This document shows positions 2,132 to 34,256 of a DNA stretch of 64,000 bases, one piece after another. This DNA comes from Desulfobacterales bacterium (GTDB taxonomy: Bacteria > Desulfobacterota > Desulfobacteria > Desulfobacterales > RPRI01). The stretch's first letter is position 1; each line of letters opens with the position of its first letter. Made by a program: the position numbers and the translations under genes. Where the stretch lies: NCBI GenBank assembly GCA_046485065.1, contig JAWOHP010000108.1:992-64991 (forward strand), written 5' to 3'. The notes under the pieces were generated by a model, which did not search any database, was not told the origin of the DNA, and was given only the letters and a program-made list of their open reading frames with translations.

Positions 2132-2164
2132 AAGCGGGAATATTCCCTATCTTTTAAATCAGAT

Positions 2165-5206: not shown

Positions 5207-5237
5207 ATATTGAATGTATATTTTATGGAGACTTAAT

Positions 5238-5726
5238 ATGAACGAAGATTTTCAACATCCTGATATTACACAAGATATGTTAGCAAAAATGAACGATATT
5301 ATTTCTACAAACAGGAATAAATCCGGTGCTTCGATAACCGTATTGAGAGAGTGTCAGAACATTGTTGGTTATCTTCCGGTTGAAATTATTGATTATATAA
5401 GCAAAGGGTTAAATATTCCCTCAAGCGAACTTTTTGGTGTTGCCTCATTTTATTCCCTCTTTTCAATGATTCCCAAAGGTAAAAACACAATAAGAATATG
5501 CCTTGGAACTGCCTGTTATGTTAAGGGAATTAAAGAGGTGCTTGAGAGGATAAGCAATCAATACAAAATAAAAGAGGGAGAAACTACTTCGGACAGGCGC
5601 TTTTCGCTTGAAACCGTCCGATGTTTAGGCGCCTGCGGGCTTGCTCCCGTCATGGTTATCAACCAGGATATTCATGGCGCCATGAGTTCGGACATTGTCT
5701 TGAATGTTCTTGACAGATATAAGTGA
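5238..5726 (+). CDS. NuoE/HydC/HndA-like thioredoxin-fold [2Fe-2S] subunit
   Basis: Cys pattern C-x4-C (RICLGTAC) ... C-x3-C (CLGACGLAP), typical of NuoE. The start was moved to the ATG at 5238, which has a GGAG 8 nt upstream. The track start at 5214 lacks an SD. Confidence 0.85.
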   Translation: MNEDFQHPDITQDMLAKMNDIISTNRNKSGASITVLRECQNIVGYLPVEIIDYISKGLNIPSSELFGVASFYSLFSMIPKGKNTIRICLGTACYVKGIKEVLERISNQYKIKEGETTSDRRFSLETVRCLGACGLAPVMVINQDIHGAMSSDIVLNVLDRYK

Positions 5727-5888
5727 CGGCTTCGTAAAAAGTCATTCTGCCGTGTTGCGCTTAATCCCCGCCCTGTTGAATAACAGCAGGGCTGATTCAA
5801 CAGGGTGAATCATTGCAGCGTAATTAAATGTACGCTTCATTCCTCAAGCTTCGTGCACCTTGCATAATGAGCTTTTTACTTTGCCGTC
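5724..5888 (+). repeat. MITE-like element, family 'GACGGCTTCGTAAAAAG' (copy A, complete with terminal inverted repeats)
   Basis: Left end GACGGCTTCGTAAAAAGTC, right end AGCTTTTTACTTTGCCGTC (its inverted repeat). Internal perfect 11-bp IR CCCTGTTGAAT/ATTCAACAGGG. It overlaps the nuoE-like TGA stop. Confidence 0.75.
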
Positions 5889-5939
5889 TTAAACATGACT
5901 TCTCTTTGAGTCCATTAAAGATGAAAGCGGTTTGTTAAT

Positions 5940-6293
5940 ATGAAAATATCAGAGATTAAAGAGATACTTAAAGCGTCCGTTATTACAGGCGATGATCAGC
6001 TTGATAAAACCGTTGTAGCAGGAGGCAGCGCTGATCTTATGGATGATGTCCTGTCCGCAATAGCGAAAAACGGCCTGCTTCTTACCGGTCTTACAACAGA
6101 AGATGTTATTACAACCTCACAGTTAGCCGGTGTCGCTGCAATTGTGTTTGTAAGGGGTAAGAAACCCGATGAACAGATAGTAAATCTGGCAAAATCGTAT
6201 AACCTTCCTCTGTTGCTCACCAGGTATTCCCTCTTTGTTGCTAGCGGGAGGCTTTACATGAATGGTCTAAGAGGACTCGACGGGTCCTGGTAG
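5940..6293 (+). CDS. DRTGG domain protein
   Basis: About 117 aa with ..LLLTGLTTEDVITTSQLAGVAAIVFVRGKKP.., which resembles DRTGG-domain proteins that accompany NuoE/NuoF-type genes in hydrogenase-like clusters. Confidence 0.65.
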   Translation: MKISEIKEILKASVITGDDQLDKTVVAGGSADLMDDVLSAIAKNGLLLTGLTTEDVITTSQLAGVAAIVFVRGKKPDEQIVNLAKSYNLPLLLTRYSLFVASGRLYMNGLRGLDGSW

Positions 6294-6342
6294 GCAAATT
6301 GGAACGGTTTTGTTACATTAAGGAATATTGCGGGAGATTTAA

Positions 6343-8130: not shown

Positions 8131-8186
8131 GTAGCGCTTCCAACGAACTCGTCAATAGTGAACGGCATAAGTTTTTATACATTTAT

Positions 8187-8266
8187 CTCACCCTCACCTT
8201 TGTCCCTCCCCTCAAGGGAGGGGAATTATTCCATCTCCCCCTGTGGGAGAAGGGTAGGGTTAGGGG
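8187..8266 (+). repeat. GC-rich double-hairpin intergenic repeat ('GGGAGAAGGGTAGGGTTAGGG' type)
   Basis: CCCCTC-aagg-GAGGGG and TCTCCC-cctgt-GGGAGA hairpins followed by AGGGTAGGGTTAGGGG. A shorter inverted copy lies at 11949-11985. Confidence 0.7.
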
Positions 8267-8329
8267 AAAATAGATTGCGAATGAGAATTATTTAAAACTC
8301 TCAAATAAAACGCCCGTGGAGAGAAAATC

Positions 8330-10393
8330 ATGTATGAAGCCATTTTAATGATGGGAGGCCTTGGTCTCGGGGTAGGTGTCTGCCTGGCCGTGGCATCCAA
8401 GGTATTTTATGTGTATGTTGATCCGTTGATCGAGGCTGTTGAAGGCGCGCTCCCGGGAGCAAATTGCGGCGGATGCGGTTTCCCGGGTTGCAGTGCAAAT
8501 GCCCAGGCCATAGTGGAAGGAAAATCAACCCCTGGTTCATGTGTTGCAGGTGGATCTGAGATCGGCGAAGCAATCGCAAAAATCATGGGAGTTTCATTTG
8601 AAGCAAGAGAACCTGATATATCAAGGCCGGGATGTACATATGGCGTTGAAAAGGCGGATACTAAATTCATATATGACGGTTTAAACGACTGCAGGGCTGC
8701 CGTTCTCCTGAGCGGAGGGATGAAGGTATGCAATATCGGCTGTATCGGGCTCGGAAGCTGTAAAAATGCATGCACATTCGGCGCAATTACAATGGGAAAA
8801 GACGGTCTTCCGGTTGTTGACAAGAAGTTATGTACGGGATGCGGGGCCTGTGAGCGGGTCTGCCCGAAGCATATAATCACACTTTCATCTGTTACAAGAC
8901 GCATTTTGCACGAATATACTACTGAAGATTGCACAACACCCTGCCAGAGAAGCTGTCCCGCCGGGATAGATATCAGGGAGTACATCAGGCAGATTGAACT
9001 GAAAGATTATCACAGGGCTGTTCAGATCATCAAGGAGAGAAATCCTTTTCCTACCGTTATAGGAAGAATCTGCCCGCGTCCGTGCGAGTTAAATTGCAGA
9101 CGAAAGCTTGTTGATGAACCTGTAGCTATCAATTATCTGAAACGTTTTGCATCCGATTATGAGAAAGAGAGCGGAGAAAGAATACTTCCCTACAAAGCGC
9201 CGTCGACAGGCAGAAAGCTTGCCGTTATTGGCGGCGGGGCTGAAGGCCTGTCCGCGGCTTTCTTTTCCGCCCGCCTTGGGCACGAGGCGGTTGTTTTTGA
9301 AGCATCGGAAAAACTAGGAGGACTACTCAGGAGCGCTATAGCATCAGTCAGGCTCCCTCATGAAGTGCTTGACTGGGATATTGATGGAATTATTGAGATG
9401 GGTGTTACTGCTAGAACAGACATGTTGCTTGGGAGGGATTACACGATAAGTTCTCTATTGTCTGAAGGACACGAGGCCGTTTTTGTTGCGACAGGCGGTT
9501 GGGACAGCAGGCTGGCGAGAGGAATGACAGGAGCTCCCGGAGAAGAGATTCCTGGTTGTTCTCTTCTGATCGATTTCATGAAAAATGTAATGGATGTTAA
9601 TTTTAAGCATGGACACGGTGTTCCATTCGGGAAAGATATAGTTATCGCAGGAGGAGACAAGCTCGCAATAGAGGCGGCCGGGATTTGCAGGAAATTAGGG
9701 GCTGAAAGAGTTACTATAATGTTCAGAGAATCAAAAGATGAGATACAGTTTAAGGAAATCGATTTTGACGCGAAAGAGCTTGAAGGCGTCAATGTTATAT
9801 TCAGGTCAGGTATTGTCCGCATTTTCGGAGAGGATAACGAATTAAAGCAGCTTGAATACGTAGATCTTGATTCACTGGATATTAAAATGATTCCTTCTTC
9901 CAGGTTGATTATGGCTTCTGCACGTTTCCCGGAACTTATTTTCAGGAAAACGAAAACAGGGGCTCCTGAAGAACCGGATCAGACAGAAGTTTACTGGGAG
10001 GGATCCGAAACATATAAACAGCCTGCTTTCAGGAATGAAACAGGGTTTTTTGCAGATGGTGATGTATTGAGTGATTTCAGCGGCGCAATAAGAGCAATAG
10101 GGGCAGGAAGGAGAGCCGCGGCTTCAATTCATAAAATGATGTATGGCACACCGATCGTACTTTCGGAAAAAGTATTAACCTTCGAATCCATTATACAGGA
10201 TGTTGCGGCGGTTGAAAATGTTAATAAAAGCCTTCGCCAGATTATGCCACTCAGCAGTGTAAAAGAGCTTTCCAGAGGCGGAGAAGCGGAAAAAGGCTTC
10301 ACTGAAGAAATGGCGGGAAAGGAAGCATCAAGGTGTCTAAAGTGCGGCCTTATCTGCTATGAGAAATCCGGATTATCCCAAGAGGTCGGATAG
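8330..10393 (+). CDS. Fusion protein: RnfB-like (N-terminal TM helix, CGGCGFPGC Fe-S domain, 2x[4Fe-4S]) plus GltD/NfnB-like NAD(P)H:FAD oxidoreductase
   Basis: The N-terminus MYEAILMMGGLGLGVGVCLAVASKVF (TM) followed by LPGANCGGCGFPGCSANAQ is RnfB-like. CTGCGACERVCP is a ferredoxin motif. CPAGIDIREYI...GRICPRPCELNCRR is the GltD N-terminal Fe-S domain. VIGGGAEGLSAA and IVIAGGDKLAIEAA are two Rossmann dinucleotide sites. Confidence 0.85.
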   Translation: MYEAILMMGGLGLGVGVCLAVASKVFYVYVDPLIEAVEGALPGANCGGCGFPGCSANAQAIVEGKSTPGSCVAGGSEIGEAIAKIMGVSFEAREPDISRPGCTYGVEKADTKFIYDGLNDCRAAVLLSGGMKVCNIGCIGLGSCKNACTFGAITMGKDGLPVVDKKLCTGCGACERVCPKHIITLSSVTRRILHEYTTEDCTTPCQRSCPAGIDIREYIRQIELKDYHRAVQIIKERNPFPTVIGRICPRPCELNCRRKLVDEPVAINYLKRFASDYEKESGERILPYKAPSTGRKLAVIGGGAEGLSAAFFSARLGHEAVVFEASEKLGGLLRSAIASVRLPHEVLDWDIDGIIEMGVTARTDMLLGRDYTISSLLSEGHEAVFVATGGWDSRLARGMTGAPGEEIPGCSLLIDFMKNVMDVNFKHGHGVPFGKDIVIAGGDKLAIEAAGICRKLGAERVTIMFRESKDEIQFKEIDFDAKELEGVNVIFRSGIVRIFGEDNELKQLEYVDLDSLDIKMIPSSRLIMASARFPELIFRKTKTGAPEEPDQTEVYWEGSETYKQPAFRNETGFFADGDVLSDFSGAIRAIGAGRRAAASIHKMMYGTPIVLSEKVLTFESIIQDVAAVENVNKSLRQIMPLSSVKELSRGGEAEKGFTEEMAGKEASRCLKCGLICYEKSGLSQEVG

Positions 10394-10402
10394 GGTGGTA
10401 TT

Positions 10403-10843
10403 TTGGCAAAAGAAGAAGGTATAGTATTGAGAACCGGCCTGGACACAGCATGGGTTAAGACTACGAGAACAGACGCATGTCATTCGTGCGAAGCAAAAGA
10501 CGCATGTAATATGCTCGGCGGCGGGAAAGATTCAGAGATTGAGGCGATTAATAAAATCGGGGCCGAAGCAGACGACAGGGTTGTTATAGGTTTTGAATCC
10601 TCATCGTTGTTTAAAGCCTCTTTCCTTCTATATATATTGCCGATTGTATTTATGATTGCCGGCGCACTGACAGGGCAGAAGCTTTCATTAAAATACGGTT
10701 TTGACGAGACACTTTTTTCAGCAGGCGCCGCTTTTTTCTCTTTTGCCGCCGCTTTTTTTCTTGTCAGGGTGTTGGGAGACAGGATGGCCCGAAAGGATGC
10801 CTACAAAGCTAAAATAATAAAAATAATAAGGCATAAAGTGTAA
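10403..10843 (+). CDS. RseC/MucC family (SoxR-reducing system) membrane protein
   Basis: N-terminal Cys motif ..CHSCEAKDAC.. followed by two hydrophobic helices. TTG start 10 nt after the upstream stop codon. Confidence 0.7.
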   Translation: MAKEEGIVLRTGLDTAWVKTTRTDACHSCEAKDACNMLGGGKDSEIEAINKIGAEADDRVVIGFESSSLFKASFLLYILPIVFMIAGALTGQKLSLKYGFDETLFSAGAAFFSFAAAFFLVRVLGDRMARKDAYKAKIIKIIRHKV

Positions 10844-13986: not shown

Positions 13987-14286
13987 GTGAATGATTTTAT
14001 CCGGAAAATGATCACTTCCAGAAAAGAGCTGTTCTGGGATAAAGGACCGTTGGATCCGGAGAAAGATAAGTTCGTTATCGTCGAAAGGATTCTTGAGTTT
14101 GGAACTGAAAAGGAATCTCAGGCGGTTATATCCCGCTATGGTGAAGAATTTGTCAGGGAGGTAGTTCGCAGCAGCCGGAATCTCAGCCCTAAAACTGTTA
14201 ATTATTTTGCCTGGTTACTAGACATTTCCCGGGAGGCTACACGATGTTTTTCCGATGTATCACCTCGGATATGGCAGCCATTCTAA
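13987..14286 (+). CDS. Small conserved-looking protein upstream of the AbiEii-type nucleotidyltransferase (putative antitoxin partner)
   Basis: 99-aa ORF with a GTG start that overlaps the downstream gene by 43 nt. No family was recognised. The antitoxin role is inferred from position only. Confidence 0.45.
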   Translation: MNDFIRKMITSRKELFWDKGPLDPEKDKFVIVERILEFGTEKESQAVISRYGEEFVREVVRSSRNLSPKTVNYFAWLLDISREATRCFSDVSPRIWQPF

Positions 14287-14918
14287 AAAATCCGTACCTG
14301 AAGAAACTCCCCCCGCAAACATATCTGGCGGGCGGCACTGCTGTGGCTCTTCATCTCGGCCATCGACTCTCCATAGACCTTGACTTTTTCACACCTTATG
14401 ATCTGGACAGTCTGCAATGGTTCAAAGGGTTGCAAACCGCCTTTGCCGGAGATTTTACATTATCTGCCGTAAAAATTGAGAAGAATTCCCTGGTTGTGAC
14501 CATGAACAGCACGGGATTTGGGCTTTTTGCTTATCCATACGATCTTATTGAAATGGCTGTTCAGGACGACTCTCTTCCTGTTCCGCTTGCTTCACTGCGC
14601 GATCTTGCTTTAATGAAGCTTATAGCCATTAATCAACGCGGAGCCTGCAAGGATTTCATCGACTTGAAGTTTATATTGGAACATACCGGCATGACTTTAG
14701 GAATTCTCATGCAGGATCTTGGCAGAAAATACGCTATTGGAGAAGAGATTTTATTTCAACTCAAAAAAAGTCTGGTCTTTTTTGAAGACGCCGAGCGGGA
14801 CTTGAATGTGAATATGTATTCTATTAACAACGGGTGCTTTGAGCGTCTTTCAGAAGAAAAATGGTTGGCAACTAAACGTTTTTTTGTGGAAGAAATCCGA
14901 AATCCGAAACAAAGTTGA
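14244..14918 (+). CDS. Nucleotidyltransferase AbiEii/AbiGii toxin family (DUF1814-like)
   Basis: ..LAGGTAVALHLGHRLSIDLDFF.. is the typical AbiEii NTase motif. GGGAGG SD 7 nt upstream of the ATG at 14244. The last codons (..EEIRNPKQS) run into a low-complexity repeat. Confidence 0.7.
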   Translation: MFFRCITSDMAAILKNPYLKKLPPQTYLAGGTAVALHLGHRLSIDLDFFTPYDLDSLQWFKGLQTAFAGDFTLSAVKIEKNSLVVTMNSTGFGLFAYPYDLIEMAVQDDSLPVPLASLRDLALMKLIAINQRGACKDFIDLKFILEHTGMTLGILMQDLGRKYAIGEEILFQLKKSLVFFEDAERDLNVNMYSINNGCFERLSEEKWLATKRFFVEEIRNPKQS

Positions 14919-19448: not shown

Positions 19449-19461
19449 TTAAAAATTTAAA

Positions 19462-19499
19462 AGCCGTACTGTTGTAAACTACAGCAGTATGGCTTTTTT
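19462..19499 (+). terminator. Rho-independent terminator downstream of the orphan metF paralogue
   Basis: 15-bp stem AGCCGTACTGTTGTA / TACAGCAGTATGGCT (two G-U pairs), loop AAC, followed by TTTTT. Confidence 0.8.
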
Positions 19500-19707
19500 G
19501 TGTCGCAAAATCCAGCAGCATTATAACTCCTTTAATTAACAGAGAATAAAACAAAATAATTGAATAATAATTTATACTCCAAATTATTCTGTCGTAAAAT
19601 CATACAATAAATTATTTCCCGCTATCAGAAACCATCTCTTTGGTCATTATTTTGATAATCGTGTTAAATCAATTAGATAATGATATTAAGTTATTCATAT
19701 CATTAAA

Positions 19708-19723
19708 TGGCATGCTCCTTGCT
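19708..19723 (+). promoter_or_regulatory. Sigma-54 (-24/-12) promoter
   Basis: TGGCATGCTCCTTGCT against consensus TGGCACG-N4-TTGCW. GG and GC have the exact spacing. It lies 55 nt upstream of the ATG at 19779, which is preceded by AAAGGAGAGG. An NtrC-type activator is encoded about 2.6 kb downstream. Confidence 0.7.
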
Positions 19724-19778: not shown

Positions 19779-20774
19779 ATGACAAATCATGATAACAGGG
19801 AACGGAGAAGCAAGCTGGGATATGGATCCACCTACAGAAAGGGAGATACTAAAGAACAGGCTCAAAGCGAGATTAAAACTGTTTTAGGCGGGCAGGTATG
19901 GATGGTAAAGCCTGATAAAAGCGCCCAAACGTCAAATCCCTGCATATGGATGAAGACAGGGCTTGTGAATTTTAAGGACTGCAATAATTTTTATGACTGC
20001 ACGACATGCAAGTTTGACCTGGGAATGACGAGAAAAGTTCAAAAGGGAAACCAGATAAGCTGGCAGGATGCAATGAGAAAAAGACCTCATATGAACAGGA
20101 TCTGCAGACACAGCCTTACAAATCGCATTGAAAAAAGGACATGTGCCTACGATTATGAGTGCTCAAAATGTGATTTTGACCAGTTTTTCGAAGACGTATG
20201 GACTACCAAAAGCAAAACAATGCCAGGCGAGATTCAGAATATTAAAGGATTTGATGTTCCTGTCGGTTACTATTTCCATGACGGCCATACATGGGCACGC
20301 ATAGAAAGCGGAGGATATATACGAATAGGATTTGATGATTTTTCCTTAAAGCTGCTCGGAAATGCCGATGCCCTTGATCTCCCTCTCATGGGTAAGGAGC
20401 TTGACCAGGGATTGGCAGGATGGGGTTTGAGGCGAAGGGAAAATACGGCTGATGTACTTTCTCCAGTCAACGGAGTTATAGTTGAAGTTAATTCGAAGGT
20501 CAGGGAAAAACCTGAAATTGCAAACAGAGAGCCATACGGGGATGGATGGCTGTTTATGGTGCGTTCTCCTGATATCAAAGGGACAGTTAAGAAACTGATG
20601 GATGACTCAACGAGCCCCGTGTGGATAAATGATGAAGTTGCCAAGCTTGAAAGAATGATTGAAGATGTTGCCGGGCCTCTTGCAGCAGACGGCGGTTATT
20701 TGAAAGAGGATATCTACGGAAATCTCCCTGGTCTTGACTGGAGAAATCTTGCAAGAACATTTTTGAAAACGTGA
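19779..20774 (+). CDS. GcvH-fold protein with N-terminal double Cys4 module (non-lipoylatable at the canonical site)
   Basis: The C-terminal ~130 aa align without gaps to GcvH (..HTWARIE..IGFDDFSLKLLG.., ..SPVNGVIVEVN.., ..EPYGDGWLF..). The N-terminus has two C-x12-C-x5-C-x2-C modules. The start was moved from 19707 to the SD-preceded ATG at 19779. Confidence 0.8.
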   Translation: MTNHDNRERRSKLGYGSTYRKGDTKEQAQSEIKTVLGGQVWMVKPDKSAQTSNPCIWMKTGLVNFKDCNNFYDCTTCKFDLGMTRKVQKGNQISWQDAMRKRPHMNRICRHSLTNRIEKRTCAYDYECSKCDFDQFFEDVWTTKSKTMPGEIQNIKGFDVPVGYYFHDGHTWARIESGGYIRIGFDDFSLKLLGNADALDLPLMGKELDQGLAGWGLRRRENTADVLSPVNGVIVEVNSKVREKPEIANREPYGDGWLFMVRSPDIKGTVKKLMDDSTSPVWINDEVAKLERMIEDVAGPLAADGGYLKEDIYGNLPGLDWRNLARTFLKT

Positions 20775-20872
20775 AAAGTGAATAGTGGATCGTGAATAGT
20801 AGATCGTTAATCGCAGTTGGAAAACGAACAGCTGACGATGAAAAACGAACCACGATCAACAAAGTTCGATAT
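20775..20872. repeat. Palindromic low-complexity element (same family)
   Basis: AGTGAATAGTGGATCGTGAATAGTAGATCGTTAATCG ... AACGAACAGCTGACGATGAAAAACGAACCACGATCAAC, starting right after the stop of the first gcvH-like gene. Confidence 0.65.
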
Positions 20873-20893
20873 TTATGTATTATGAGGTGAGAA

Positions 20894-21820
20894 ATGAAAA
20901 CTGCTCTTAATCAAAACAAGATAAAAACAAGTGCGAGTCCCTGCCTCTGGATGCAGGCAGGGATTGTCCGCAATAGATATTGCAAAATTTCCTATGATTG
21001 TACAGCGTGCCGTTTCGACAGAGTAATGTCGCGTGCTTCCGATGAAAACAGAACTATGCCAGGAAAAGGTAAATCCTATGAAAAAGGGAGAAAACACATT
21101 GTCCACTGGATTGATAAGATGAAGGAAATGCCTTCAACAAAACGCCCGTGCATTCATCATATGAAAGGGCGTATTGATTTCAAAAACTGCAGCCATGACT
21201 ACAGGTGCGCAAATTGCGAGTTCGATCAGTATTTTTATGACCAGTACACTGTTCACGCACTGGTAAAGCCTGTGGAAGTTTTTAATGTGCAGGGCTTCAG
21301 GATTCCTCAGGGATACTACATCCATAGAGGTCATGCCTGGGTTAAGATTGAAGAAGGCTCAACAGTGAGAATCGGGCTTGATGATTTTGCCCTGCGGCTA
21401 CTCGGAGCTATTGAAAATGTTGAAGCCCCTCTCGTCGGAAAGCAAATTAAACAGAATATCTCCCAGATTGTATTAAAACGGGGTGAAAAGAGCGCCGGAG
21501 TCCTTTCACCCGTCAGCGGTGTTGTGACGGATGTCAATACGAAGCTGCGGGAAGAGGGCGGCCTCGCCAATAAAAATCCCTATACCGAAGGCTGGGTTGT
21601 GAGACTTCATTCGGAAGGTCTCAGGAATGAACTTAAAGATCTTTATATAGGCTCCGAATCAAAAGAATTTATTGGAAAAGAGATCAGCCGTCTTTATGAT
21701 GTTATTGAAGAATCAGGGGGACTTTTAAATACTGACGGGGGATATCTCGGCGAAGACATATATGGGAATATGCCCCAGATAGGCTGGGAAAGATTAACAA
21801 GGCTTTTTCTCCGCACCTGA
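20894..21820 (+). CDS. GcvH-fold protein with N-terminal double Cys4 module (paralogue of 19779-20774)
   Basis: Same architecture as the upstream gene: CLWMQAGIVRNRYCKISYDCTAC and CIHHMKGRIDFKNCSHDYRCANC, then ..HAWVKIE..IGLDDFALRLLG.., ..SPVSGVVTDVN.., ..PYTEGWVV... GAGGTGAG SD. Confidence 0.8.
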   Translation: MKTALNQNKIKTSASPCLWMQAGIVRNRYCKISYDCTACRFDRVMSRASDENRTMPGKGKSYEKGRKHIVHWIDKMKEMPSTKRPCIHHMKGRIDFKNCSHDYRCANCEFDQYFYDQYTVHALVKPVEVFNVQGFRIPQGYYIHRGHAWVKIEEGSTVRIGLDDFALRLLGAIENVEAPLVGKQIKQNISQIVLKRGEKSAGVLSPVSGVVTDVNTKLREEGGLANKNPYTEGWVVRLHSEGLRNELKDLYIGSESKEFIGKEISRLYDVIEESGGLLNTDGGYLGEDIYGNMPQIGWERLTRLFLRT

Positions 21821-22375
21821 TTTCTTAAGACTTTTCATTTCATCATCCAGAAGAATTTTGCAGTACCTGCAAAGCTGATCCGACTTCCGGTCAACATCAA
21901 ATTCGGTTCGGCAATAGTGCATTATGCAAATGTTTTCCTTGCAATGGCGAAGATTGAATGTGTGACCGAGTTCATGGGCCGCTTCCTTTACAATCCTCTG
22001 TTTAAAAATGACGTCCGGATGAGCCACAGATATATGATCCTTGAGTCTGTAGGCGGAGACAACGCAGGCCTTTCCCCCAAGCTGTGCCTCCCCGTAAACA
22101 TGGGTTAAGATCGGAATAAACAGATCAACTTTTGTTACGGCAATTACTTTAATTGCAAAGGGAGGGGCTGATTTTTCAAGATGCTGAAGTATCGATGTCG
22201 AGTGGTACTGGTTCCGGCCTGAATCAAATGCAAAGTTAACATCTTCAAGGAGAGGAATAATCAGCGTCGGGAAACCGAATATCCTGTTTATTTCCTTTTT
22301 AAGAGGCTCGGTTATTTCGGAACCAAAATTGCCTATGGGAGAGATGACGATGCTATGTTCGGGATATATTTTCAA
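21794..22375 (-). CDS. Archaemetzincin-family zinc metalloprotease
   Basis: HELGHTFNLRHC-x4-C-x-M-x...-CRYC matches the archaemetzincin signature HExxHxxGxxHC...CxM...CxxC. Its stop lies 7 nt downstream of the response-regulator stop region on the same strand. Confidence 0.75.
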   Translation of the reverse strand: MKIYPEHSIVISPIGNFGSEITEPLKKEINRIFGFPTLIIPLLEDVNFAFDSGRNQYHSTSILQHLEKSAPPFAIKVIAVTKVDLFIPILTHVYGEAQLGGKACVVSAYRLKDHISVAHPDVIFKQRIVKEAAHELGHTFNLRHCKENICIMHYCRTEFDVDRKSDQLCRYCKILLDDEMKSLKKSGAEKKPC

Positions 22376-22382
22376 GATATGA

Positions 22383-23723
22383 TTATCTTTGAGCTATCAT
22401 ATATCGTCTGATTTTGCTGTAAAGAGTGGAACGGTCAATTCCCAGCTCTTTCGCAGTTTTTGATATATTCCAATCGTTTGCGTGAAGAACCTTTGTTATG
22501 TGAGCTTTTTCGATTCCGGCAAGGGTATTGTCTGAGAAAACGCAAATATCTTCCGGGCGGAAAATGGGGAGATCTTCAGGAAGAATTTTTCTTTTCCTGC
22601 TGACAACGACCGCCCTTTCTATAGCATTTTCAAGCTCTCTTATATTCCCCGGCCATTCATAAAGCATCATTTCATCCATTGCTTCGCGGCTGATATTATC
22701 TATCTGCTTATTGGTTTCATTGGAGAAGCGGTGAAGAAAATGCTCAGCCAAAAGCGGTATATCTTCCTTCCGTTCGCTTAAGGAAGGCATTTTAAAGGAG
22801 AAGACATTGAGTCGGTAATAAAGGTCTTCTCTGAATATGCCGGTCTTGATTGCTGCCTGGAGATCCCTGTTTGTGGCGGCTATAACCCTGAAATCAGCCT
22901 CCATTGGCTGGGTGCCCCCAACCCTATAAAATATGTGATCTTCTAGTACACGTAAAAGGTCAATCTGCATTCTCATGCTGATTTCACCTATTTCGTCCAG
23001 AAAAAGGGTTCCCCCGTGCGCCATCTCGAGACGACCTTTTTTGGTCGATTTGGCGTCTGTGAACGCACCTTTTTGATATCCGAACAATTCGCTTTCCATA
23101 AGATGTTCGGGTATAGCGCCGCAATTTACAATTACAAACGGCCCGTTGCATCGAGGACTGTTCGAATGAATAGCCTTTGCTGCAAGGCCTTTGCCAGTTC
23201 CGGTTTCGCCTGTTATAAGGACAGTGGAATTGGTGGGGGCTACGTTCTGTATGAGGTCAAATATTTTCTGCATAACGGGTGACTGGCCGATCAGGCTTTC
23301 AAACCTTGTTCTTTCCTTGTACTGCTCTCTGAGGTAAAGATTTTCTATGGCCTGAGCCTGACTTTCTTGGATTTTTTCGATAAGCACTCCAAGTTCATGA
23401 GGGTCAAATGGCTTCAGAAGATAATCAAAAGCTCCGTTCTTTATTGCCTCTATCGCGGTTGATATGGATCCGAAGGCAGTTATCATGACTATTGCCACAT
23501 CGGGGTCATCATCCTTTACCCGCTTCAAAACATCGAGCCCGCTGATTCCTTCCATCTTTATATCGACGAGAAGAATATCGAATCGAACCTCTTTGATTTT
23601 ATCGAGAGCCTCTTCACCGCTTGCTGCTATTTCAACCTCATGACCGTCACGCTTAAGCCAGCCGGACAAGGATTCCCGCATTATCAACTCGTCATCAACA
23701 ACAAGGATCCTTGATCTTTTCAT
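22383..23723 (-). CDS. Sigma-54-dependent response regulator (REC, AAA+, Fis-type HTH; NtrC family)
   Basis: REC (ILVVDDE..DILLVDIKM), Walker A GETGTGKG, GAFTDA (GAFTGA variant), ..FLDEIGE.., C-terminal HTH ..ISKTAKELGIDRSTLYSKI... Confidence 0.92.
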   Translation of the reverse strand: MKRSRILVVDDELIMRESLSGWLKRDGHEVEIAASGEEALDKIKEVRFDILLVDIKMEGISGLDVLKRVKDDDPDVAIVMITAFGSISTAIEAIKNGAFDYLLKPFDPHELGVLIEKIQESQAQAIENLYLREQYKERTRFESLIGQSPVMQKIFDLIQNVAPTNSTVLITGETGTGKGLAAKAIHSNSPRCNGPFVIVNCGAIPEHLMESELFGYQKGAFTDAKSTKKGRLEMAHGGTLFLDEIGEISMRMQIDLLRVLEDHIFYRVGGTQPMEADFRVIAATNRDLQAAIKTGIFREDLYYRLNVFSFKMPSLSERKEDIPLLAEHFLHRFSNETNKQIDNISREAMDEMMLYEWPGNIRELENAIERAVVVSRKRKILPEDLPIFRPEDICVFSDNTLAGIEKAHITKVLHANDWNISKTAKELGIDRSTLYSKIRRYMIAQR

Positions 23724-23757: not shown

Positions 23758-25293
23758 TCAATGCCTTATAGGAAGATCTATCTTGAAAACAGTCCCTTTT
23801 CCAATAGTAGAACTTACCTTTATGTAGCCTCCATGTTCCTGGATAATTCCGTATGCGAGGGAAAGACCCAAGCCTACGCCTTTTCCCCGTTTTTTTGTTG
23901 TAAAAAAAGGCTCGAAAATAGAAGTGAAATTTTCCTTGGGAATTCCTATTCCGGTGTCCTGAAATTTGGCAACAACCCTTCCTGTCCGGGCAAAGTGTTT
24001 TGTTGCGATTGTCAGAACACCCTTACCTTTTGATTCGACGGATTCAACCGCATTGGATACCAGGTTCATAATAACCTGCTGAAGTTGATCCTCGGACCCG
24101 ACAAGGTCCGGGAGATTCTGATCAAGCCGGTATTGTACCTTAACCTTGTTAATTTTAAGAAGGTTTGAATTTAAAAAGAGAGTATGCTCAATAAGCTTGT
24201 TCAGGTTTAACGGCTTTGATTCCATCTTGTTCTGTCTTGAAAATGCAAGCAGGTAGGATACAATACGGCTTGTTCTTCTTGTTTCATTTTCCATCAGGGT
24301 TAGATAGCGAAGAAATTCATTTACTTCCTTTTTTCCGACGGGATTTTCCTGGATGATGCGCTTGATAAGAAGTATAAGGTTGAGTATTCCTGCAATCGGA
24401 TTGTTTATTTCATGAACAACCGATGCTGAAAGCTTGCCGAGAGATGCCATCTTGTCTTTGTGGATAAGCTTTTCATGTGTTTCCTTGAGCTGTCTTGTGC
24501 GTTCCTCAACCATTTGCTCAAGGCGTCTTGTAATCTCTTCTTCTTCTTCCATTCGCTTTGTTATATCACGGCTGATATGGATGAATTTTGAGATCTTCCC
24601 ACCCTTTTCCCATACGGGATATATATTGACCTCGATATGATGAATCTTGTTATGACTGCCCTTCTGCGTTCTTACCTGCCGGACCGGCCTTTTGTTGCGT
24701 ATAACCTCCATAAGAGGACACGTCTGATCCTCCCTGCTGGTGCAGTCAATCTGATCCCTTTGAAGAACTTCGTAGCATTTTCGCCCTATGACCTTATCAC
24801 GGGAAAGCTTTATATTATTAAGGAAGGCTTCGTTGGCATCCACAATTGTCATATCGGGCGTAATAACGGATATAAAATCCTGGATTCCATTTAAAATTGT
24901 CTCCATGGCTTTATTTTGTTCTCTCAGCTTCCGTTCTTCCTGCCCGATTGCCTTCCAAAAAATCTCAAAAACATGATAAGATAAAATGCGGATGCGTGTC
25001 GGTCTAGTTGCAAGAATATCCTCCAGAATAAACGGTTCCGGCCTTAAAATTATAATAAGATGAATACTGTATATGGGGTCATAAAGTTCGTGGTAGTCAT
25101 TGACTGTAATGAGCCCCATTTTTGTCGCAAGCAACATACCTGGTTGGTCAGGGTCTGGATCGGCAACCGCAATAATAGGGGTAAAAACATCATCCTGTTT
25201 TAAATCGAAGGTGGTTTTTTCAAGGAGTTCCTTGCATAAATCATCTCCGCCAACAAGAGCTATGTTTATAATTGAAGCGGTCTTATCTGTCAT
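23758..25293 (-). CDS. Cytoplasmic sensor histidine kinase (N-terminal Rossmann-like region, PAS, HisKA, HATPase)
   Basis: No hydrophobic TM stretch is visible. H-box SVVHEINNP, N-box/G-boxes ..NLVSNAVES.., DTGIGI, GVGLGLS. A PAS-like segment lies between residues ~125 and 240. Confidence 0.88.
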   Translation of the reverse strand: MTDKTASIINIALVGGDDLCKELLEKTTFDLKQDDVFTPIIAVADPDPDQPGMLLATKMGLITVNDYHELYDPIYSIHLIIILRPEPFILEDILATRPTRIRILSYHVFEIFWKAIGQEERKLREQNKAMETILNGIQDFISVITPDMTIVDANEAFLNNIKLSRDKVIGRKCYEVLQRDQIDCTSREDQTCPLMEVIRNKRPVRQVRTQKGSHNKIHHIEVNIYPVWEKGGKISKFIHISRDITKRMEEEEEITRRLEQMVEERTRQLKETHEKLIHKDKMASLGKLSASVVHEINNPIAGILNLILLIKRIIQENPVGKKEVNEFLRYLTLMENETRRTSRIVSYLLAFSRQNKMESKPLNLNKLIEHTLFLNSNLLKINKVKVQYRLDQNLPDLVGSEDQLQQVIMNLVSNAVESVESKGKGVLTIATKHFARTGRVVAKFQDTGIGIPKENFTSIFEPFFTTKKRGKGVGLGLSLAYGIIQEHGGYIKVSSTIGKGTVFKIDLPIRH

Positions 25294-25320
25294 TGCAGTG
25301 AGTACTTTTTTTAAGATCTA

Positions 25321-25545
25321 AGTTGAAATAGTGAATAGTCGATAGTGAAAAGTGAATAGTAAAAAGGATTCAAGGATTCAAGTTTAGATAGGAATCAGGC
25401 ATTAGGCAATAGTGAGTAAAGCTGAATATCGGGTTTCGTTGATCCACGACCTGCGATCGACTATTCACTGTTTATTATTAACTGCCATATCTCGCCTTAC
25501 GACTATTCACTATTCACTGTTCACCTTTCCCTTTTCAACTATCAT
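25321..25545. repeat. Palindromic low-complexity element (same family, largest copy)
   Basis: Left arm AGTTGAAATAGTGAATAGTCGATAGTGAAAAGTGAATAGT, right arm CGACTATTCACTATTCACTGTTCAC..TTTCAACT (complementary). An embedded GGATTCAAGGATTCAAG is present. Confidence 0.7.
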
Positions 25546-25771: not shown

Positions 25772-28700
25772 ATGGCTGGAAAAGTTGTTGGATCTGTTAT
25801 GGTGGTCGGCGGGGGAATAGCTGGAATGCAGTCCGCTCTTGATCTTGCTAATTCAGGATATTATGTCTATCTGGTAGAAAAATCGGCCGCTATCGGAGGG
25901 CTTATGTCACAGCTTGACAAGACCTTTCCGACCAATGACTGCGCCATGTGAGTTATCTCTCCGAAACTGGTCGAGGTCGGCCGGCATCTTAATATAGAAC
26001 TACTGATGAATTCCGAACTCCTTGAACTTAAAGGAGACCCGGGAAATTTTACTGCCCGTATCAGGCAGAACCCCCGCTTTATAGACTTGTCCAAGTGCAC
26101 AAGCTGCGGAGAATGTTCCAAGGTCTGTCCTGTGGTACTATCAAATGAATATGACGAGAATCTTTCGGTAAAAAAAGCCGCTTATAAACAATATCCGCAG
26201 GCTATTCCCGGCGCCTATGCCATACAGAAAGCCGATAAAGCTCCATGCCGGCTGGCATGCCCTGCCGGGCTCAATGTCCAGGGCTATGTTCAGATGGCAG
26301 GCCAGAAAAAATATAAAGAAGCCCTTAAGATAATTATGGAAGATCTTCCGTTGCCGGGTGTACTGGGAAGGATATGTCCTCACGGATGCGAAGATGCATG
26401 TCGCAGGTGCGAGGTAGATCAGCCTGTTGCCATACGCAGCTTAAAACGTCTTGCCGCCGACAGGTTCGATCCAAGGCAGGTTGAAATTAAAACTCTTCCG
26501 AGGAGACAGGAAAAGGTTGCCATCATCGGATCTGGACCGGCCGGTCTTTCTGCAGCTTACCACCTTGCGCGGAAAGGTGTAATTTCCACGATTTATGAAG
26601 CTTTGCCGAAAGCCGGGGGGATGCTCAGGGTCGGCATACCGGAGCACAGACTTCCCAGGGAAGTTCTTGACAGGGAAATAGAAGTAATAACCAATCTTGG
26701 AGTGGAAATTAAAACAAGCACTCCTCTTGGAAATGATTTGACGATCGACGGCATTTTGGCTGACGGCTACAAGGCCGTTTATATAGCAATAGGAGCTCAC
26801 AGGGGGTTTGAGCTTGGAGTTCCTGGGGAAAAAGCAAAAGGAGTCCGTCAGGGAGTCGACTTCCTCAGGGAGGTCAATCTTACCGGAAAAGCGGATGTCG
26901 GCAAAAAAATTGCCATAATCGGCGGCGGCAATGTTGCCATAGACGTTGCGCGTTGCGCCGTAAGACTTGGGGCTGAAAAGGTCAACATAATATACCGGAG
27001 GACGCGGAGTGAAATGCCGGCATGGGAAGAAGAGATTCATGCCGCGGAGGTTGAAGGGACGGAAATCACATATCTTTCGGCGCCTCAGGAGGTATTGACG
27101 TCTGACGGGAAAGTTATCGGTTTGCGATGTATTCGCATGGAGCTGGGAGAGCCAGATTCATCAGGAAGGAGAAGACCTGTTCCCGTTCCGGGAAGCGAGT
27201 ATGACATTGAAATAGACCAGCTCATTCCGGCCATAGGTCAGAGACCTGATCTGTCTGCTCTGGAGAACATAACAGGAATAAATATTTCGCGCTGGGGAAC
27301 TGTTGAAACCGATTCTGTTACATATGCAACAGGGCTCGCGGGTGTTTTTGCCGGAGGAGATGTTCAGACGGGTCCCTGGGTTGCCATTGGCGCTATTGCA
27401 GCGGGAAAAGACGCGGCCGAATCTATTATCAGGTATCTTGACGGGAAAGACATGGCAGAGGGCAGGGATCCGGTTACGAATGAAAATCCGGTGTACAGAC
27501 CGGTGCCGGAAAATGAACCTAAAAAGTTTAGAAAAGTCATGCCGGAGCTTCCTGTTGAAAAGCGCGCAGGCAACTTTAAGGAGGTTGAACTGGGATACAG
27601 CGAAGAAGACGGAGAGGCCGAAGCATCAAGATGTCTTAATTGCGGTTATTGTTCAGAGTGCCTGCAGTGTGTTGATGCCTGTCTTGCCGGAGCTATTGAC
27701 CACAGCCAAAAAACATCTGAAAAGGAGATTGAAGTCGGTTCCATAATACTTTGCCCTGGGAGCGATACCTTTGATCCGTCTGTTCTTGATGAATTCTACC
27801 ATTACAAAACGAATCCGAATGTTTTGACCAGCCTGGAATTTGAGAGAATACTCAGCGCATCCGGGCCGACAATGGGGCATCTTGTGAGGCCTTCGGATAA
27901 GAGGGAGCCGAAAAAAATTGCATGGCTCCAGTGTGTCGGATCGAGAGATAACAACAAGTGCGGGAACGGATACTGCTCCTCGGTATGCTGCATGTATGCT
28001 GTTAAAGAAGCCATGATTGCAAAGGAGCATGCTCACGGAGGTGTTGACTGCGCGATATTTAACATGGATATGCGTACATTTGGAAAGGATTACGAGAAAT
28101 ATTACAACAGGGCAAAGGATAAGGATGGGGTCCGTTTTGTCAAAGCGCGCGTTCACACCATGAACGAAATTCCTGATACCGGAAATCTTCGTATAAGGTT
28201 CGCAGATGAATCGGGGGATATCCGGGAAGAAGAATTTGACATGATTGTTCTTTCGGTCGGCCTGAAGGTTCCGCAGTCAACCGTGGAAATGGCAAAGCGC
28301 CTCAATATAGATCTGGACAAGTACAGTTTTGCGTCCAGCAAGCCTTTTACCCCGATTGAAACGTCAAGAGCCGGCGTATATGCATGCGGAATTTTTCAGG
28401 GCCCCAAGGATATTCCGAGCTCCGTAATTGAGGCAAGCGCTGCCGCATGTGCCGCAGGCGGGAAGTTGAACGAAGCGAGAGGAACACGAACAAAAACCGT
28501 TAAGGTTCCTGACGAAATTGATGTGGCAGGACAGGAGCCGAGAATCGGAGTGTTTGTTTGTGATTGCGGCATTAATATTGCCGGAGTAGTTGATGTTAAA
28601 GCCGTATGCGAATATGCTTCCAAACTTCCCCACGTTGTTTTTACCGGAGAGAATCTTTTTACGTGTTCGCAGGATTCTCAGGACAGGATGAAGGAGATTA

Positions 28701-30205
28701 TAAGGGAGAAGAGTCTCAACAGAGTTGTTGTTTCAGCCTGCACCCCCAAAACCCATGAAGCCATTTTTATGGATACCCTGGAAGCCTGTGGTTTGAATAA
28801 ATACCTTTTTGAAATGGCAAACATCCGGAACCAGGATTCATGGACGCATTCCAATGACCCTGCGAAGGCCACAGAAAAGGCTAAAGAGCTAGTTAAAATG
28901 GCTGTAGCGCGGGTTGCAACTCTGAATCCCCTGCATGAAAAGAGAATACCGGTTGTTAAAAGAGCCCTTATTATAGGCGGCGGTGTGTCCGGCATGAACG
29001 CAGCCCTTGGTCTTGCTGACCAGGGTTTTGAAACTGTTCTTGTTGAAAAAGAACCGCAGCTTGGCGGCATGGCAAACCGCCTGACTTCAACCATCGAAGG
29101 AGAAAAAATCGGTCCTTATGTTTCCGATCTCATCAGGAAAGTAAGTAGCCATTCCAAAATACAGGTTTTAACCCAGTCCCTTATAGTCGGCTTTTCAGGA
29201 TTCAAGGGAAATTTTACCACAGAGTTGATTGTCGGGCCCGGCATGTATGAGAGGAAAATTGATCACGGTGTTGTAATTCTTGCCACAGGAGCCAACGAGT
29301 ACATTCCTACCGAGTTCTTATACGGGCAGGATTCAAGGGTTATGACACAGATAGAACTTGCCGGTCGCCTTGAGAAAGATGGATCTGCTGGCCTTGACAG
29401 CGTGGTAATGATACAATGCGTCGGATCCAGGAACGAGGAGAATCCCAACTGCTCAAGAATATGCTGCCAGAGCGCTGTAAAGAACGCTCTTCATATCAAG
29501 GAACTGAACCCGGATGTCAACATATACATCCTGTACAGGGATATGAGGATGTACGGACTGCTGGAGGATTATTACACGGAAGCAAGGCGCAAGGGTATTT
29601 TCTTCTTCAGATATACGTCTGATGATATGCCTGTGGTTGAATCAACCGACGATGGTCTGACAGTTACTTTCAGGGATCATGTTCTGGGCCGCCGTTTAAA
29701 AGTCCAGGCTGATATTCTTGGTTTAAGCGCAGGAATGAGGCCCACAGACACCACTGAATTATCTTCGATTATCAAGCTGGCCCTCAACGCGGAGGGCTAT
29801 TTTATGGAGGCTCATGTAAAGTTAAGGCCTGTTGATATGGCAACTGACGGTATTTTCGTATGCGGAACCGCTCACAGTCCAAAACTTCTTACTGAAGCCA
29901 TTCCTCAGGCCTTGGCTGCCGCTTCAAGAGCCACAACATTCCTTTCACAGGATTATCTGACTCTATCTGCTGTTACTGCATGTGTTGAGGCGGAAAAGTG
30001 TGCGTCCTGCCTGATATGTGTCAGGTCCTGTCCATATGGTGTTCCGAGAATCAATGCTGATGGAGTAAGCGAGATTGATGTTGCGCTTTGTCACGGTTGC
30101 GGAGTATGCGCTGCTGAATGTCCGGCAAAGGCTATTGAACTGAACTGGTATGAGGATGATCAGATATTGAGCAAGGTTGAAGCCTTGCTGGAGGGGGTTT
30201 TATGA
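25772..30205 (+). CDS. hdrL: HdrL-type giant heterodisulfide-reductase-A-like flavoprotein (two HdrA modules plus an inserted GltD-like NAD(P)H module), selenocysteine at TGA 25949-25951
   Basis: [38 protein letters not shown] matches the HdrA motif DC(S/A)M-C-I(L/S)xPK. The frame runs continuously into ORF 26006..30205. GltD-like part: [49 protein letters not shown]. HdrA motifs: [24 protein letters not shown]. Second HdrA module: [27 protein letters not shown]-terminal 2x[4Fe-4S]. The start is set to the ATG at 25772 (GAGGAG SD). Confidence 0.85.
25949..25951 (+). other. Probable selenocysteine (UGA) codon in hdrL
   Basis: In-frame TGA at a conserved Cys position. The frame stays open on both sides, and a hairpin candidate starts 10 nt downstream. 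Confidence 0.75.
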
Positions 30206-32957: not shown

Positions 32958-34256
32958 ATGTCATCAGAGGTAATCAGTCTAAAACGTGGAAAACAAAGCA
33001 TATTTATTGATAAGGTTAAAGCACTTCTTCCCGATGAAGGGAACCTGAATCTCTGTCTTACCTGCGGAGCCTGCTCATCAGGATGTCCTGCGACAGGGCT
33101 CGAGGGTATGGATCCAAGAAAGTTTCTGCGCATGGCAGCCCTTGGTTTGGATGATGAAATATTAAAGAGCGACTGGCCGTGGATGTGCACCATGTGCCAG
33201 CGATGCATATATGTCTGTCCGATGAAGATAGACATACCACAACTTATTTTCAATGTTAGAGGGAGCTGGCCAAGAGAGACAAGGCCTAAAGGAATACTCG
33301 GATCATGCGACATGGCGCTTAAACATGACACATGCAGCGCCATGGGGGCATCCGAAGAAGACTGGAGATTTGTTGTTGAGGATGTTGCAGGCGAGGTGAG
33401 GGAAAATCAGGAAGGATTTGAAAGTCTTCAGGCTCCGATGGACAAGGTTGGCGCTGAATTATATTTAAACCAGAATTCGAGAGAGCCGGTAACTGAGCCT
33501 GATGAAATGATACCATTGTGGAAGATTCTTCATCTGGTCGGCGCTGACTGGACATATGGTTCTAAAGGATGGGCTGCAGAGAATTACTGCATGTTCATTG
33601 CGGATAATGAAAGCTGGAAGCATATAGTGCGGGTCAAGGCCAAGGCCGTGGACGATTTGAAATGCAAAGTCTGGCTTAACACTGAGTGAGGGCATGAACT
33701 TTTTGCGGTCCGGGCCGGACTGAAAAAATTCAACATACCCTACAACTTTGAAATTAAGAGCATTATTCAGTTTTATGCCCAGTGGATACGCGAAGGAAAA
33801 CTTAAAGTCAATTCCGACTGGAACAAGGATTTAAAGATAAAGTTTACTGTTCAGGATCCCTGCCAGCTGGTCCGCAAAAGTTTTGGCAATCCTGTTGCCG
33901 AAGATTTGAGATTCGTCGTTAAATCCGTTGTTGGTGAAGATAACTTCGTTGATATGACGCCAAACAGGTCAAACAATTACTGCTGCGGAGGCGGAGGAGG
34001 CTTTCTCCAGTCGGGTATGCCTGAAGCAAGACGAACCTATGGAAAAATGAAAGATGAGCAGATAAAGAACACTGGCGCTGCTTACTGTATAACACCTTGC
34101 CATAACTGCCATGCGCAGATCCATGATTTGTCCGAGCATTACGGCGGGGGATACCATTCGACTCATCTGTGGACGCTGATATGTCTTTCACTGGGTGTAC
34201 TCGGCGAGAATGAACGAACATATTTAGGACCTGACCTTGCGGAGGTGGGACTGTAA
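32958..34256 (+). CDS. HdrD-like (HdrC+HdrB fusion) Fe-S/CCG-domain oxidoreductase, selenocysteine at TGA 33687-33689
   Basis: N-terminal CLTCGACSSGCP and CTMCQRCIYVCP (HdrC-like). After ..KVWLNTE-TGA-GHELFAV.. the same frame stays open for 72 codons with no ATG/GTG/TTG and contains ..FTVQDPCQL... It then continues into track ORF 33906.. with NNYCCGGGGGF and TPCHNCHAQ (CCG domain). Confidence 0.75.
33687..33689 (+). other. Probable selenocysteine (UGA) codon in hdrD-like gene
   Basis: In-frame TGA. Conserved-looking coding sequence without any start codon follows. Hairpin cgGTCCG-ggc-CGGACtg lies 15 nt downstream. Confidence 0.65.

Follow-up and report, generated by a model that had tools for sequence, protein, structure and literature searches.

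What does an H-protein fold do once its lipoyl lysine is gone? The question is raised by two neighbouring genes, here P1 and P2, in a 64,000-nucleotide stretch of DNA from a Desulfobacterales bacterium, a marine sulfate reducer (assembly GCA_046485065.1, contig JAWOHP010000108.1, positions 992 to 64,991; this whole stretch is referred to as the window, and positions are counted from its first letter). The annotation "glycine cleavage system protein H" (GcvH) stands on all 24 named NCBI or UniRef records of their relatives that the word-index searches returned, and it is functionally wrong because the cofactor site is gone. We rate P1 and P2 as derivatives of the H-protein fold that belong to a sigma-54 two-component module and carry an apparently new cysteine-rich domain, which we refer to as dCys.

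Relatives were collected with a word-index search, which returned more than 1,400, and with a scan using one genome per species, which gave 341 genomes. We retrieved 80 related loci from Desulfobacterales, Desulfatiglandales and other Thermodesulfobacteriota, the named hosts among them being Desulfonema, Desulfosarcina, Desulfobacterium sp. N47 and the Olavius Delta-1 symbiont. Constraint was read from 155 orthologues of P1 and P2, with 34 distant relatives as a further set.

An H-protein barrel without the lipoyl lysine

P1 (19779–20774, plus strand, 331 aa) and P2 (20894–21820, plus strand, 308 aa) share 41% identity over ~300 aa and are paralogues. An earlier note, made from the letters of this DNA, had proposed two tandem genes with a GcvH fold at this place, and the open reading frame (ORF) calls and Pfam agree with it, as do the alignment for P1 and the AlphaFold2 model and Foldseek for P2. 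Pfam GCV_H (PF01597) covers residues 165–277 of P1 (E 9.9e-20) and 144–259 of P2 (E 4.9e-22), with bit scores of 71 and 79 against a cut-off of 22. The P2 model was built on a diverse alignment of 53 sequences that included distant relatives and reached a mean predicted local distance difference test score (pLDDT) of 83.9, an earlier model from 47 close homologues had a pLDDT of 54.6 and did not resolve the N-terminal domain. In a Foldseek comparison with the PDB, the modelled barrel (residues ~129–250) superposes on H-proteins with a template-modelling score of 0.91 (target-normalised) and a root-mean-square deviation of 1.6 Å to 1onl and 3ab9, and the search with the whole model returned H-proteins and biotinyl/lipoyl domains only. 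As modelled, the barrel is a genuine GcvH fold. The GcvH core motifs HxW, G-x-DDF, SP-x-G and PY-x-GW align in both proteins without gaps, and HMMER alignments to the solved H-proteins 1onl and 3a8i run ungapped through the hairpin.

At the lipoyl-lysine position of this hairpin, the alignment places a glutamate in both proteins, Glu221 in P1 (codon GAA, 20439–20441, plus strand) and Glu198 in P2 (codon GAA, 21485–21487, plus strand), the tips reading RRRENTAD and KRGEKSAG against the VESVKTASD of the H-protein. This bears out the substitution that the note had read in both proteins, and the column proves variable throughout the family. The P1 lineage has D/E/G/N (counts beginning D44/E17/G5), with K and R alternating at the residue before, the P2 lineage has S/G/E/K/N/T/A, including Lys in 14 of 121 members, and most of the 34 distant relatives have G/D/E at the tip, which some lack altogether. 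P2 has a lysine at +1 of the tip (Lys199), and no hairpin column conserves Lys in the P1 lineage, the P2 lineage or the distant relatives.

Similarly, the NCBIfam GcvH scores of 70–76 bits lie under the cut-offs (115.85 for TIGR00527, 117 for NF002270), and the scores for GcvH_rel_desulf (NF045810, 27–36 bits, cut-off 150) and not_gcvH (TIGR03077, 39–51 bits, cut-off 144) stay below theirs too. Neither gcvT, gcvP and lpd nor the lipoylation genes lplA, lipA and lipB occur within the 64-kb window, and none was identified among the genes examined around the related loci. The GcvH-like domains have a net charge of −2/+2, compared with −21 for E. coli GcvH, and on this count the barrel is predicted to have lost the acidic surface of true H-proteins. 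P1 and P2 are not glycine-cleavage H-proteins, in agreement with the suspicion voiced in the note.

The proteins exceed GcvH by ~130–160 residues at the N-terminus (dCys, linker and the N-terminal extension of P1) and by ~50 at the C-terminus. P1 consists of a conserved N-terminal extension (residues 1–53), the dCys domain, the barrel (165–277) and a C-terminal helical extension (278–331); P2 consists of the dCys domain (~14–118), a linker (119–133), the barrel (144–259) and the corresponding C-terminal helical extension (260–308). This last part is conserved in both proteins over ~50 aa with the motif DGG-L--DI-G--P---W--L---FL (P2 residues 254–308 are helical in the model), and as it follows the barrel, the statement that both proteins end in the GcvH domain had to be corrected. 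Ratios of non-synonymous to synonymous substitution of 0.05–0.08 in P1 and 0.10–0.20 in P2, which hold for both halves of the proteins, point to strong purifying selection on both domains, with tighter constraint on P1 than on P2.

The N-terminal extension shared by P1 orthologues (19779–19937, residues 1–53; G-x-GS-x-YRKG ... I--V-GGQVW-VKPDK) is absent from P2. The start codon of P1, ATG at 19779, is preceded by the ribosome-binding site GGAGAG. A longer P1 frame starting at 19707 was ruled out because that ATG lies upstream of the sigma-54 promoter at 19708–19723.

A duplicated four-cysteine domain

Each protein carries, upstream of the barrel, two modules with the spacing C-x12-C-x5-C-x2-C, each followed by K/R/D/E-F-D, and both the strings and the spacing had been given exactly in the note. 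On the plus strand, the modules of P1 are CIWMKTGLVNFKDCNNFYDCTTC (19941–20009, residues 55–77) and CRHSLTNRIEKRTCAYDYECSKC (20103–20171, residues 109–131), and those of P2 are CLWMQAGIVRNRYCKISYDCTAC (20942–21010, residues 17–39) and CIHHMKGRIDFKNCSHDYRCANC (21149–21217, residues 86–108), the latter with the invariant His88. Neither the eight cysteines nor His88 (the histidine of C-x-H in module 2) varies among the 155 orthologues from the two lineages, and the 12-5-2 spacing is kept in 213 of 237 modules of diverse representatives; such regularity lies well outside chance. When the profiles of modules 1 and 2 were compared by HHalign they matched over all 35 columns (probability 99.25%, E 5.7e-20), the modules are homologous and dCys is therefore an internal duplication. 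The model gives both modules the same topology: a short beta-strand, C1, a short helix, a beta-strand with C2, a loop, and then C3-x2-C4 at the N-terminus of a long helix. Aromatic residues flank the cysteines.

Searching 1.84 billion representative proteins with the dCys profile recovered 619 representatives at E ≤ 1e-3, 161 of them at E ≤ 1e-10. Besides dCys-GcvH-like proteins these include response regulators of the form REC-(TPR)-dCys, a TPR-dCys-HisKA-HATPase_c kinase, TPR-dCys proteins that stand alone and end in short basic tails, a version with four modules and a subfamily with an extra N-terminal cysteine element ("MKCPFLEE..VVRYCKA"). The named REC, kinase and stand-alone members are from Dehalococcoidia. 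From the range of these sequences we take dCys to be an autonomous domain. The extra element is ~50 aa long and Cys-rich, reads MKCPFLEE(I/V)VVRYCKA.P..KMIP...C...C, occurs in P0268, P0276, P0277, P0284, P0286 and P0301 (e.g. locus L084, 7001–8071), and has no Pfam or NCBIfam match. A word-index search with the N-terminal domain only also gave apparent stand-alone N-domains, which were rejected as fragments, truncated or frameshifted copies of P1.

The note had not recognised the cysteine spacing as a standard ferredoxin, rubredoxin or radical-SAM motif, and profile searches likewise returned no known family. No Pfam or NCBIfam model hit the N-terminal region in 12 diverse members or in any dCys architecture, and no family profile or characteristic cysteine motif of the Fer4 clan, rubredoxin or radical SAM matched dCys. 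Among PDB sequences, the two-module profile found none at E ≤ 10, whilst the best match of a one-module profile (E 0.21) was a chance CxxC match, and Foldseek with the whole P2 model found no PDB entry matching the N-domain. A literature search found no description of either the P1/P2 family or its cysteine domain. dCys thus appears to be new, and each four-cysteine module probably holds one metal centre, either iron-sulfur (Fe-S) or zinc.

A dedicated sigma-54 promoter

The pair is preceded by a sigma-54 promoter, TGGCATgctccTTGCT (−24/−12 type, TGGCAY-N5-TTGCW; 19708–19723, plus strand), which is the only perfect match to this pattern in the 64-kb window and lies 56 nt upstream of the P1 start codon. 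The promoter that the note had placed over the pair is therefore real as a site and is kept upstream of P1 in 65 of 68 loci, these being 65 of the 72 plus-strand matches in the 1.1 Mb of locus DNA scanned for promoter and enhancer motifs. It also occurs before distant dCys-GcvH genes and before a REC-dCys gene. Further upstream are two candidate upstream activating sequences on the plus strand, the proximal TGTCGTAAAATCATACA (TGT-N11-ACA; 19590–19606) at −118 from the −24 element, and the distal TGTCGCAAAATCCAGCA (19501–19517) at about −207, a half-palindrome with one mismatch to TGTnG-N7-CnACA. Across 66 upstream regions, the palindrome TGTnG-N7-CnACA (consensus TGTAGAAAAATCCAACA) occurs at 84 sites and is fixed at about −118 and −208, where ~0.1 would be expected per region. 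Of the 94 strict matches in the 1.1 Mb, 78 fall in the −118/−208 zone, and most of the others are upstream of P1 where the promoter pattern had failed, so the palindromes are essentially exclusive to the P1-P2 promoter.

The methylenetetrahydrofolate reductase (MTHFR)-like gene upstream ends in an intrinsic terminator (19459–19499, plus strand) with an 18-bp stem followed by a U-run, its fold of −24.8 kcal/mol has a z-score of −7.9 and was equalled by none of 200 shuffles. The upstream terminator, together with a promoter and enhancers of its own, argues that P1-P2 is a dedicated two-gene sigma-54 operon. The locus has the conserved −24/−12 site, the upstream sites at −118/−208, whose enhancer role is predicted, and an adjacent gene for an NtrC-type protein. 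Co-regulation of P1-P2 with hdrA or metF was considered and rejected: neither the sigma-54 promoter nor the enhancer motif stands upstream of these genes, none of the strict enhancer matches of all loci being found there.

Conserved partner genes

In 70 of 72 loci P1 immediately precedes P2, and downstream of P2 a conserved, convergent series of genes for archaemetzincin, NtrC-type activator and PAS histidine kinase follows in 41 of 53 loci. In the window, these are an archaemetzincin (Peptidase_M54; 21794–22375, minus strand; NCBIfam archmetzin, 151 bits against a cut-off of 145), an NtrC-type sigma-54 enhancer-binding response regulator with REC, AAA+ and HTH_8 domains by Pfam (22383–23723, minus strand), and a histidine kinase (23758–25293, minus strand) in which the domain search found PAS, HisKA and HATPase_c after an N-terminal ~125 aa without a domain. 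Taken singly, archaemetzincin and an orthologue of the NtrC-type activator each accompany P2 in 41 of the 53 loci, and in 33 the archaemetzincin is no more than 700 nt away. The adjacent NtrC-type protein is presumed to be the cognate activator of P1-P2.

The same partners are kept by relatives only 28–35% identical, in differing gene orders. For example, L083 has a single-copy relative that shares 35% identity with P2 and has M54, NtrC and kinase genes after it, whilst at L084 and L085 a 28% identical relative with the extra N-terminal element follows M54-NtrC and the kinase is divergent; the sigma-54 promoter is present in all three.

The archaemetzincin and P2 overlap convergently at their 3′ ends by 27 nt (21794–21820), and the archaemetzincin retains the HELGHTFNLRH metal site and a C-terminal cysteine cluster. 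Two loci of dCys signalling proteins have neighbourhoods of their own. L081, with REC-dCys at 6001–6996, has a histidine kinase, an NtrC-type gene, REC-dCys and then three HtrA-type proteases, and a sigma-54 promoter lies 71 nt upstream of REC-dCys. L082, from a named Dehalococcoidia metagenome-assembled genome with dCys genes at 310–1392 and 6001–7428, has NtrC, REC-dCys, NuoE/F/G-like genes, a LuxR-type regulator and a dCys histidine kinase.

Hdr and MetF genes around the pair

The note had placed the pair between a MetF paralogue and an Hdr/MetF cluster, which holds in part: the upstream neighbour is indeed MTHFR-like but is a separate transcription unit, and downstream the archaemetzincin, NtrC and kinase genes intervene. 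Of 57 loci, 28 have an Hdr, Mvh or Met gene no more than 10 kb away, as do 14 of the 28 loci whose flanks are both complete, in several arrangements, and there are neighbourhoods without any, such as L026. In Desulfosarcina-type loci, the pair sits among unrelated genes and retains its promoter.

On function, the note had suggested a redox or C1-linked carrier or a sensor. The sensor half of this gains support from the fusion of dCys to receiver and kinase domains and from two-component synteny across deep divergence. The C1-linked carrier half finds none beyond proximity, given that Hdr/Mvh/Met genes are near in only 28 of the 57 loci, that the hdrA/metF promoters lack the enhancer motif of the pair, and that a terminator parts the MTHFR-like gene from the pair.

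Signalling element or electron carrier

The H-protein shape without its lysine, the double four-cysteine domain and the pair's own sigma-54 system together make P1 and P2 probably metal-based signalling or redox proteins. The reading that we favour, and to which we give an even chance of being right, is that they are a metal- or redox-dependent output or feedback element of the sigma-54 signalling module. This module would have four parts: the histidine kinase, the NtrC-type enhancer-binding protein, the archaemetzincin, and one or two dCys-GcvH-like proteins. The kinase would phosphorylate the activator, which would bind the TGTnG-N7-CnACA enhancers at −118 and −208 and open the sigma-54 promoter. 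The products, P1 and P2, probably joined in a heteromer, would then act in protein-protein signalling or feedback according to metal or redox state, with dCys carrying the signal and the barrel and C-terminal helices docking the partner; their part would be regulatory rather than catalytic.

Several points weigh against this. If a feedback element were its sole local target, the regulon would lack an output, the kinase carries a PAS sensor of its own and a second sensor is not strictly needed, and metal binding by dCys is something that we infer from its cysteine pattern. Furthermore, the Hdr/Mvh/Met genes within 10 kb in 28 of 57 loci and the redox neighbours at L082 and L083 suit electron transfer equally well.

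Such an electron-transfer role is the alternative that survives best, and we consider it possible though unlikely. Both modules would hold Fe-S clusters in place of the lipoamide arm, and the barrel would dock on an HdrA-like or GltD/NfnB-like flavoprotein as the H-protein docks on the L-protein, giving an inducible carrier for methylene-tetrahydrofolate (THF) reductase/Hdr or formate dehydrogenase (FDH)-type complexes. It would fit the persistence of Hdr/Mvh/Met neighbours through rearrangements, the GltD-like flavoprotein and molybdopterin oxidoreductase that adjoin the distant homologue at L083, the NuoE/F/G-like genes that adjoin the dCys signalling proteins at L082, the strictly anaerobic hosts and the aromatic residues near the cysteines. 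However, half of the loci (e.g. L026) have no Hdr/Mvh/Met neighbour, the hdrA and metF promoters lack the P1-P2 enhancer, a pure electron carrier would not typically share its domain with receivers and kinases, as dCys does, and the cysteine spacing is unlike known ferredoxin motifs and matches no Fer4 model. In its most specific form, P1/P2 would be a shuttle of Cys4 clusters on an H-protein barrel, induced by its own redox-sensing sigma-54 system and exchanging electrons, in sulfate reducers that oxidise completely, with the methylene-THF reductase HdrA-MvhD-MetVF. We regard this version as quite improbable; if true, it would supply the long-sought physiological electron partner of HdrA-MvhD-MetVF.

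Zinc, rather than Fe-S, in the modules would lead to a different role, which we think doubtful. As structural zinc fingers, the dCys modules would bind nucleic acid or RNA polymerase, REC-dCys proteins would be response regulators with a new DNA-binding output, and P1/P2 would act at a second tier, as transcription factors or anti-activators whose barrel is a ligand or dimerisation domain. dCys does stand at the output position of response regulators, followed there by Lys/Arg-rich helical tails, and the modelled C3xxC4 at a helix N-terminus after a beta-hairpin is an arrangement that we take to be treble-clef-like, that is, zinc-finger-like. The dCys of P2 is also basic (median net charge +8), but across the architectures the charge runs from −11 to +15, with −11 in the kinase fusion, one would not expect a DNA-binding domain where a histidine kinase has its sensor, and dCys shows no similarity to a known zinc-finger family or PDB chain. 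Universal nucleic-acid binding by dCys is not supported by these charges.

A thiol/disulfide (or persulfide) carrier, in which cysteine pairs of dCys would be the substrate of HdrB/HdrD-like CCG subunits in the manner of DsrC or LbpA, is very unlikely. HdrC/HdrB-like CCG genes are present in the window (32958–34256), and a GcvH-like protein beside Hdr genes recalls the sHdr-LbpA system, but no HdrB/C-like gene turned up in the 80 related loci, and eight invariant cysteines in two identical, compact four-ligand modules are in our judgement better suited to metal sites. Finally, a genuine H-protein modified on a neighbouring lysine such as Lys199 of P2, or bearing another prosthetic arm, is scarcely credible: the +1 lysine of P2 and the canonical-column lysine in some P2-lineage members speak for it, and against it stand the hairpin without a conserved Lys column in either lineage or the distant relatives, the K/R alternation at −1 in P1, the GcvH equivalog scores below cut-off, and a window without gcvT, gcvP, lplA, lipA or lipB.

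Relation to known systems

With GcvH (PF01597, TIGR00527) P1 and P2 have the fold and the ungapped core motifs in common, whereas they differ in the missing lipoyl lysine, an unconstrained hairpin, near-neutral charge, the dCys and C-terminal additions, sigma-54 regulation and the absence of gcvT and gcvP nearby. LbpA, which binds lipoate in the sHdr system of sulfur oxidation and is known from work of the Dahl laboratory, keeps its lipoyl lysine and has dedicated lipoate-assembly genes alongside. It resembles P1/P2 as a GcvH-like protein that is found near Hdr-like genes and has a role outside glycine cleavage, P1/P2 by contrast have no such lysine, carry dCys, are tied to a two-component system instead of sHdr, and have no lipoate ligase or synthase among their neighbours. 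The GcvH-L of Streptococcus and Staphylococcus (PDB 5a35) is another divergent H-protein-like fold with a role other than glycine cleavage and a weaker Foldseek match (rank 22, E 1.4e-5); GcvH-L is lipoylated, single-domain and encoded in a macrodomain/sirtuin operon.

For the regulatory side, the nearest parallels are sigma-54-dependent accessory proteins whose genes adjoin those of the activating system, for instance ZraP (activated by ZraSR) and PspA (by PspF). There too a small dedicated sigma-54 operon adjoins an NtrC-family two-component system, and its product is a (metal-binding) accessory protein able to feed back. ZraP and PspA have no sequence or fold relationship to P1/P2, for which feedback is hypothesised. 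No N-terminal signal sequence was obvious by eye in P1 or P2.

FNR, NreB and Wbl are Cys-ligated Fe-S sensors. OrpR of Desulfovibrio vulgaris, reported as a Cys-ligated Fe-S sensor in anaerobe signalling, is a further example, from the sigma-54 systems of sulfate reducers (PMC8359166). By analogy, these four proteins resemble dCys in the use of four-cysteine sites for redox sensing in transcriptional control, but the 12-5-2 spacing and the predicted fold of dCys differ, and dCys is a tandem repeat, separable from the regulator, with a putative cluster.

Other genes of the window

The HdrA-like gene (25773–30205, plus strand) probably starts at ATG 25773, not at 26006 as in the ORF list, and contains an in-frame TGA (25950–25952), which is probably a selenocysteine codon because HdrA presumably has a cysteine motif at that position. 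A search for a selenocysteine insertion sequence (SECIS) gave a single 61-nt fold 3′ of this TGA, which does not stand out (z-score −0.84). The HdrC-like ferredoxin and HdrB-like CCG ORFs (32958–34256, plus strand) are separated by TGA 33687–33689 ("...KVWLNTE-TGA-GHELFAV..."), and because the frame runs on past it without a stop, a second selenocysteine read-through is suggested, giving one HdrD-like protein of ~430 aa. The region between the histidine kinase and hdrA (25320–25530) contains AGTGAATAG / CTATTCACT several times, in either orientation; these repeats differ from the P1 enhancer motif and might serve a regulator of the hdrA-mvhD-metVF operon as operators.

Genes for NuoE-like, DRTGG, NuoF-like, GltD/NfnB-like (Fer4_20 and Pyr_redox_2) and RseC proteins occupy 5214–10843 (plus strand), and the trio of NuoF, GltD-like and RseC genes recurs ~5 kb upstream of P1-P2 in about a dozen Desulfosarcina-type loci. 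At 14244–14918 (plus strand), flanked by the genes for a ZIP transporter and a pyridoxal phosphate (PLP)-dependent decarboxylase, is a gene for a nucleotidyltransferase toxin of the AbiEii type (type IV toxin-antitoxin). Outside the window, near the single-copy dCys-GcvH-like gene of L083, a molybdopterin oxidoreductase is present as two adjoining ORFs (1286–3380, minus strand; 224 aa with Molybdop_Fe4S4, and 400 aa) beside a 717-aa GltD-like flavoprotein; the split could be a selenocysteine stop in a formate-dehydrogenase-like gene.

Implications

An apparently new, autonomous Cys-rich domain is hereby defined, with 619 cluster representatives in at least two phyla and a presence also in two-component proteins; should dCys prove to bind Fe-S, it would add a new module for redox sensing or electron transfer. 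The conserved four-gene signalling module gives archaemetzincin its first consistent bacterial genomic partners, and for P1-P2 a precise promoter and enhancer are now defined. The hosts are mostly Desulfobacterales, an order that one paper credits with much of the carbon oxidation in marine sediments (PMC11887813), and here P1-P2 neighbours an Hdr-linked methylene-THF reductase, poorly understood so far, that belongs to the Wood-Ljungdahl pathway.

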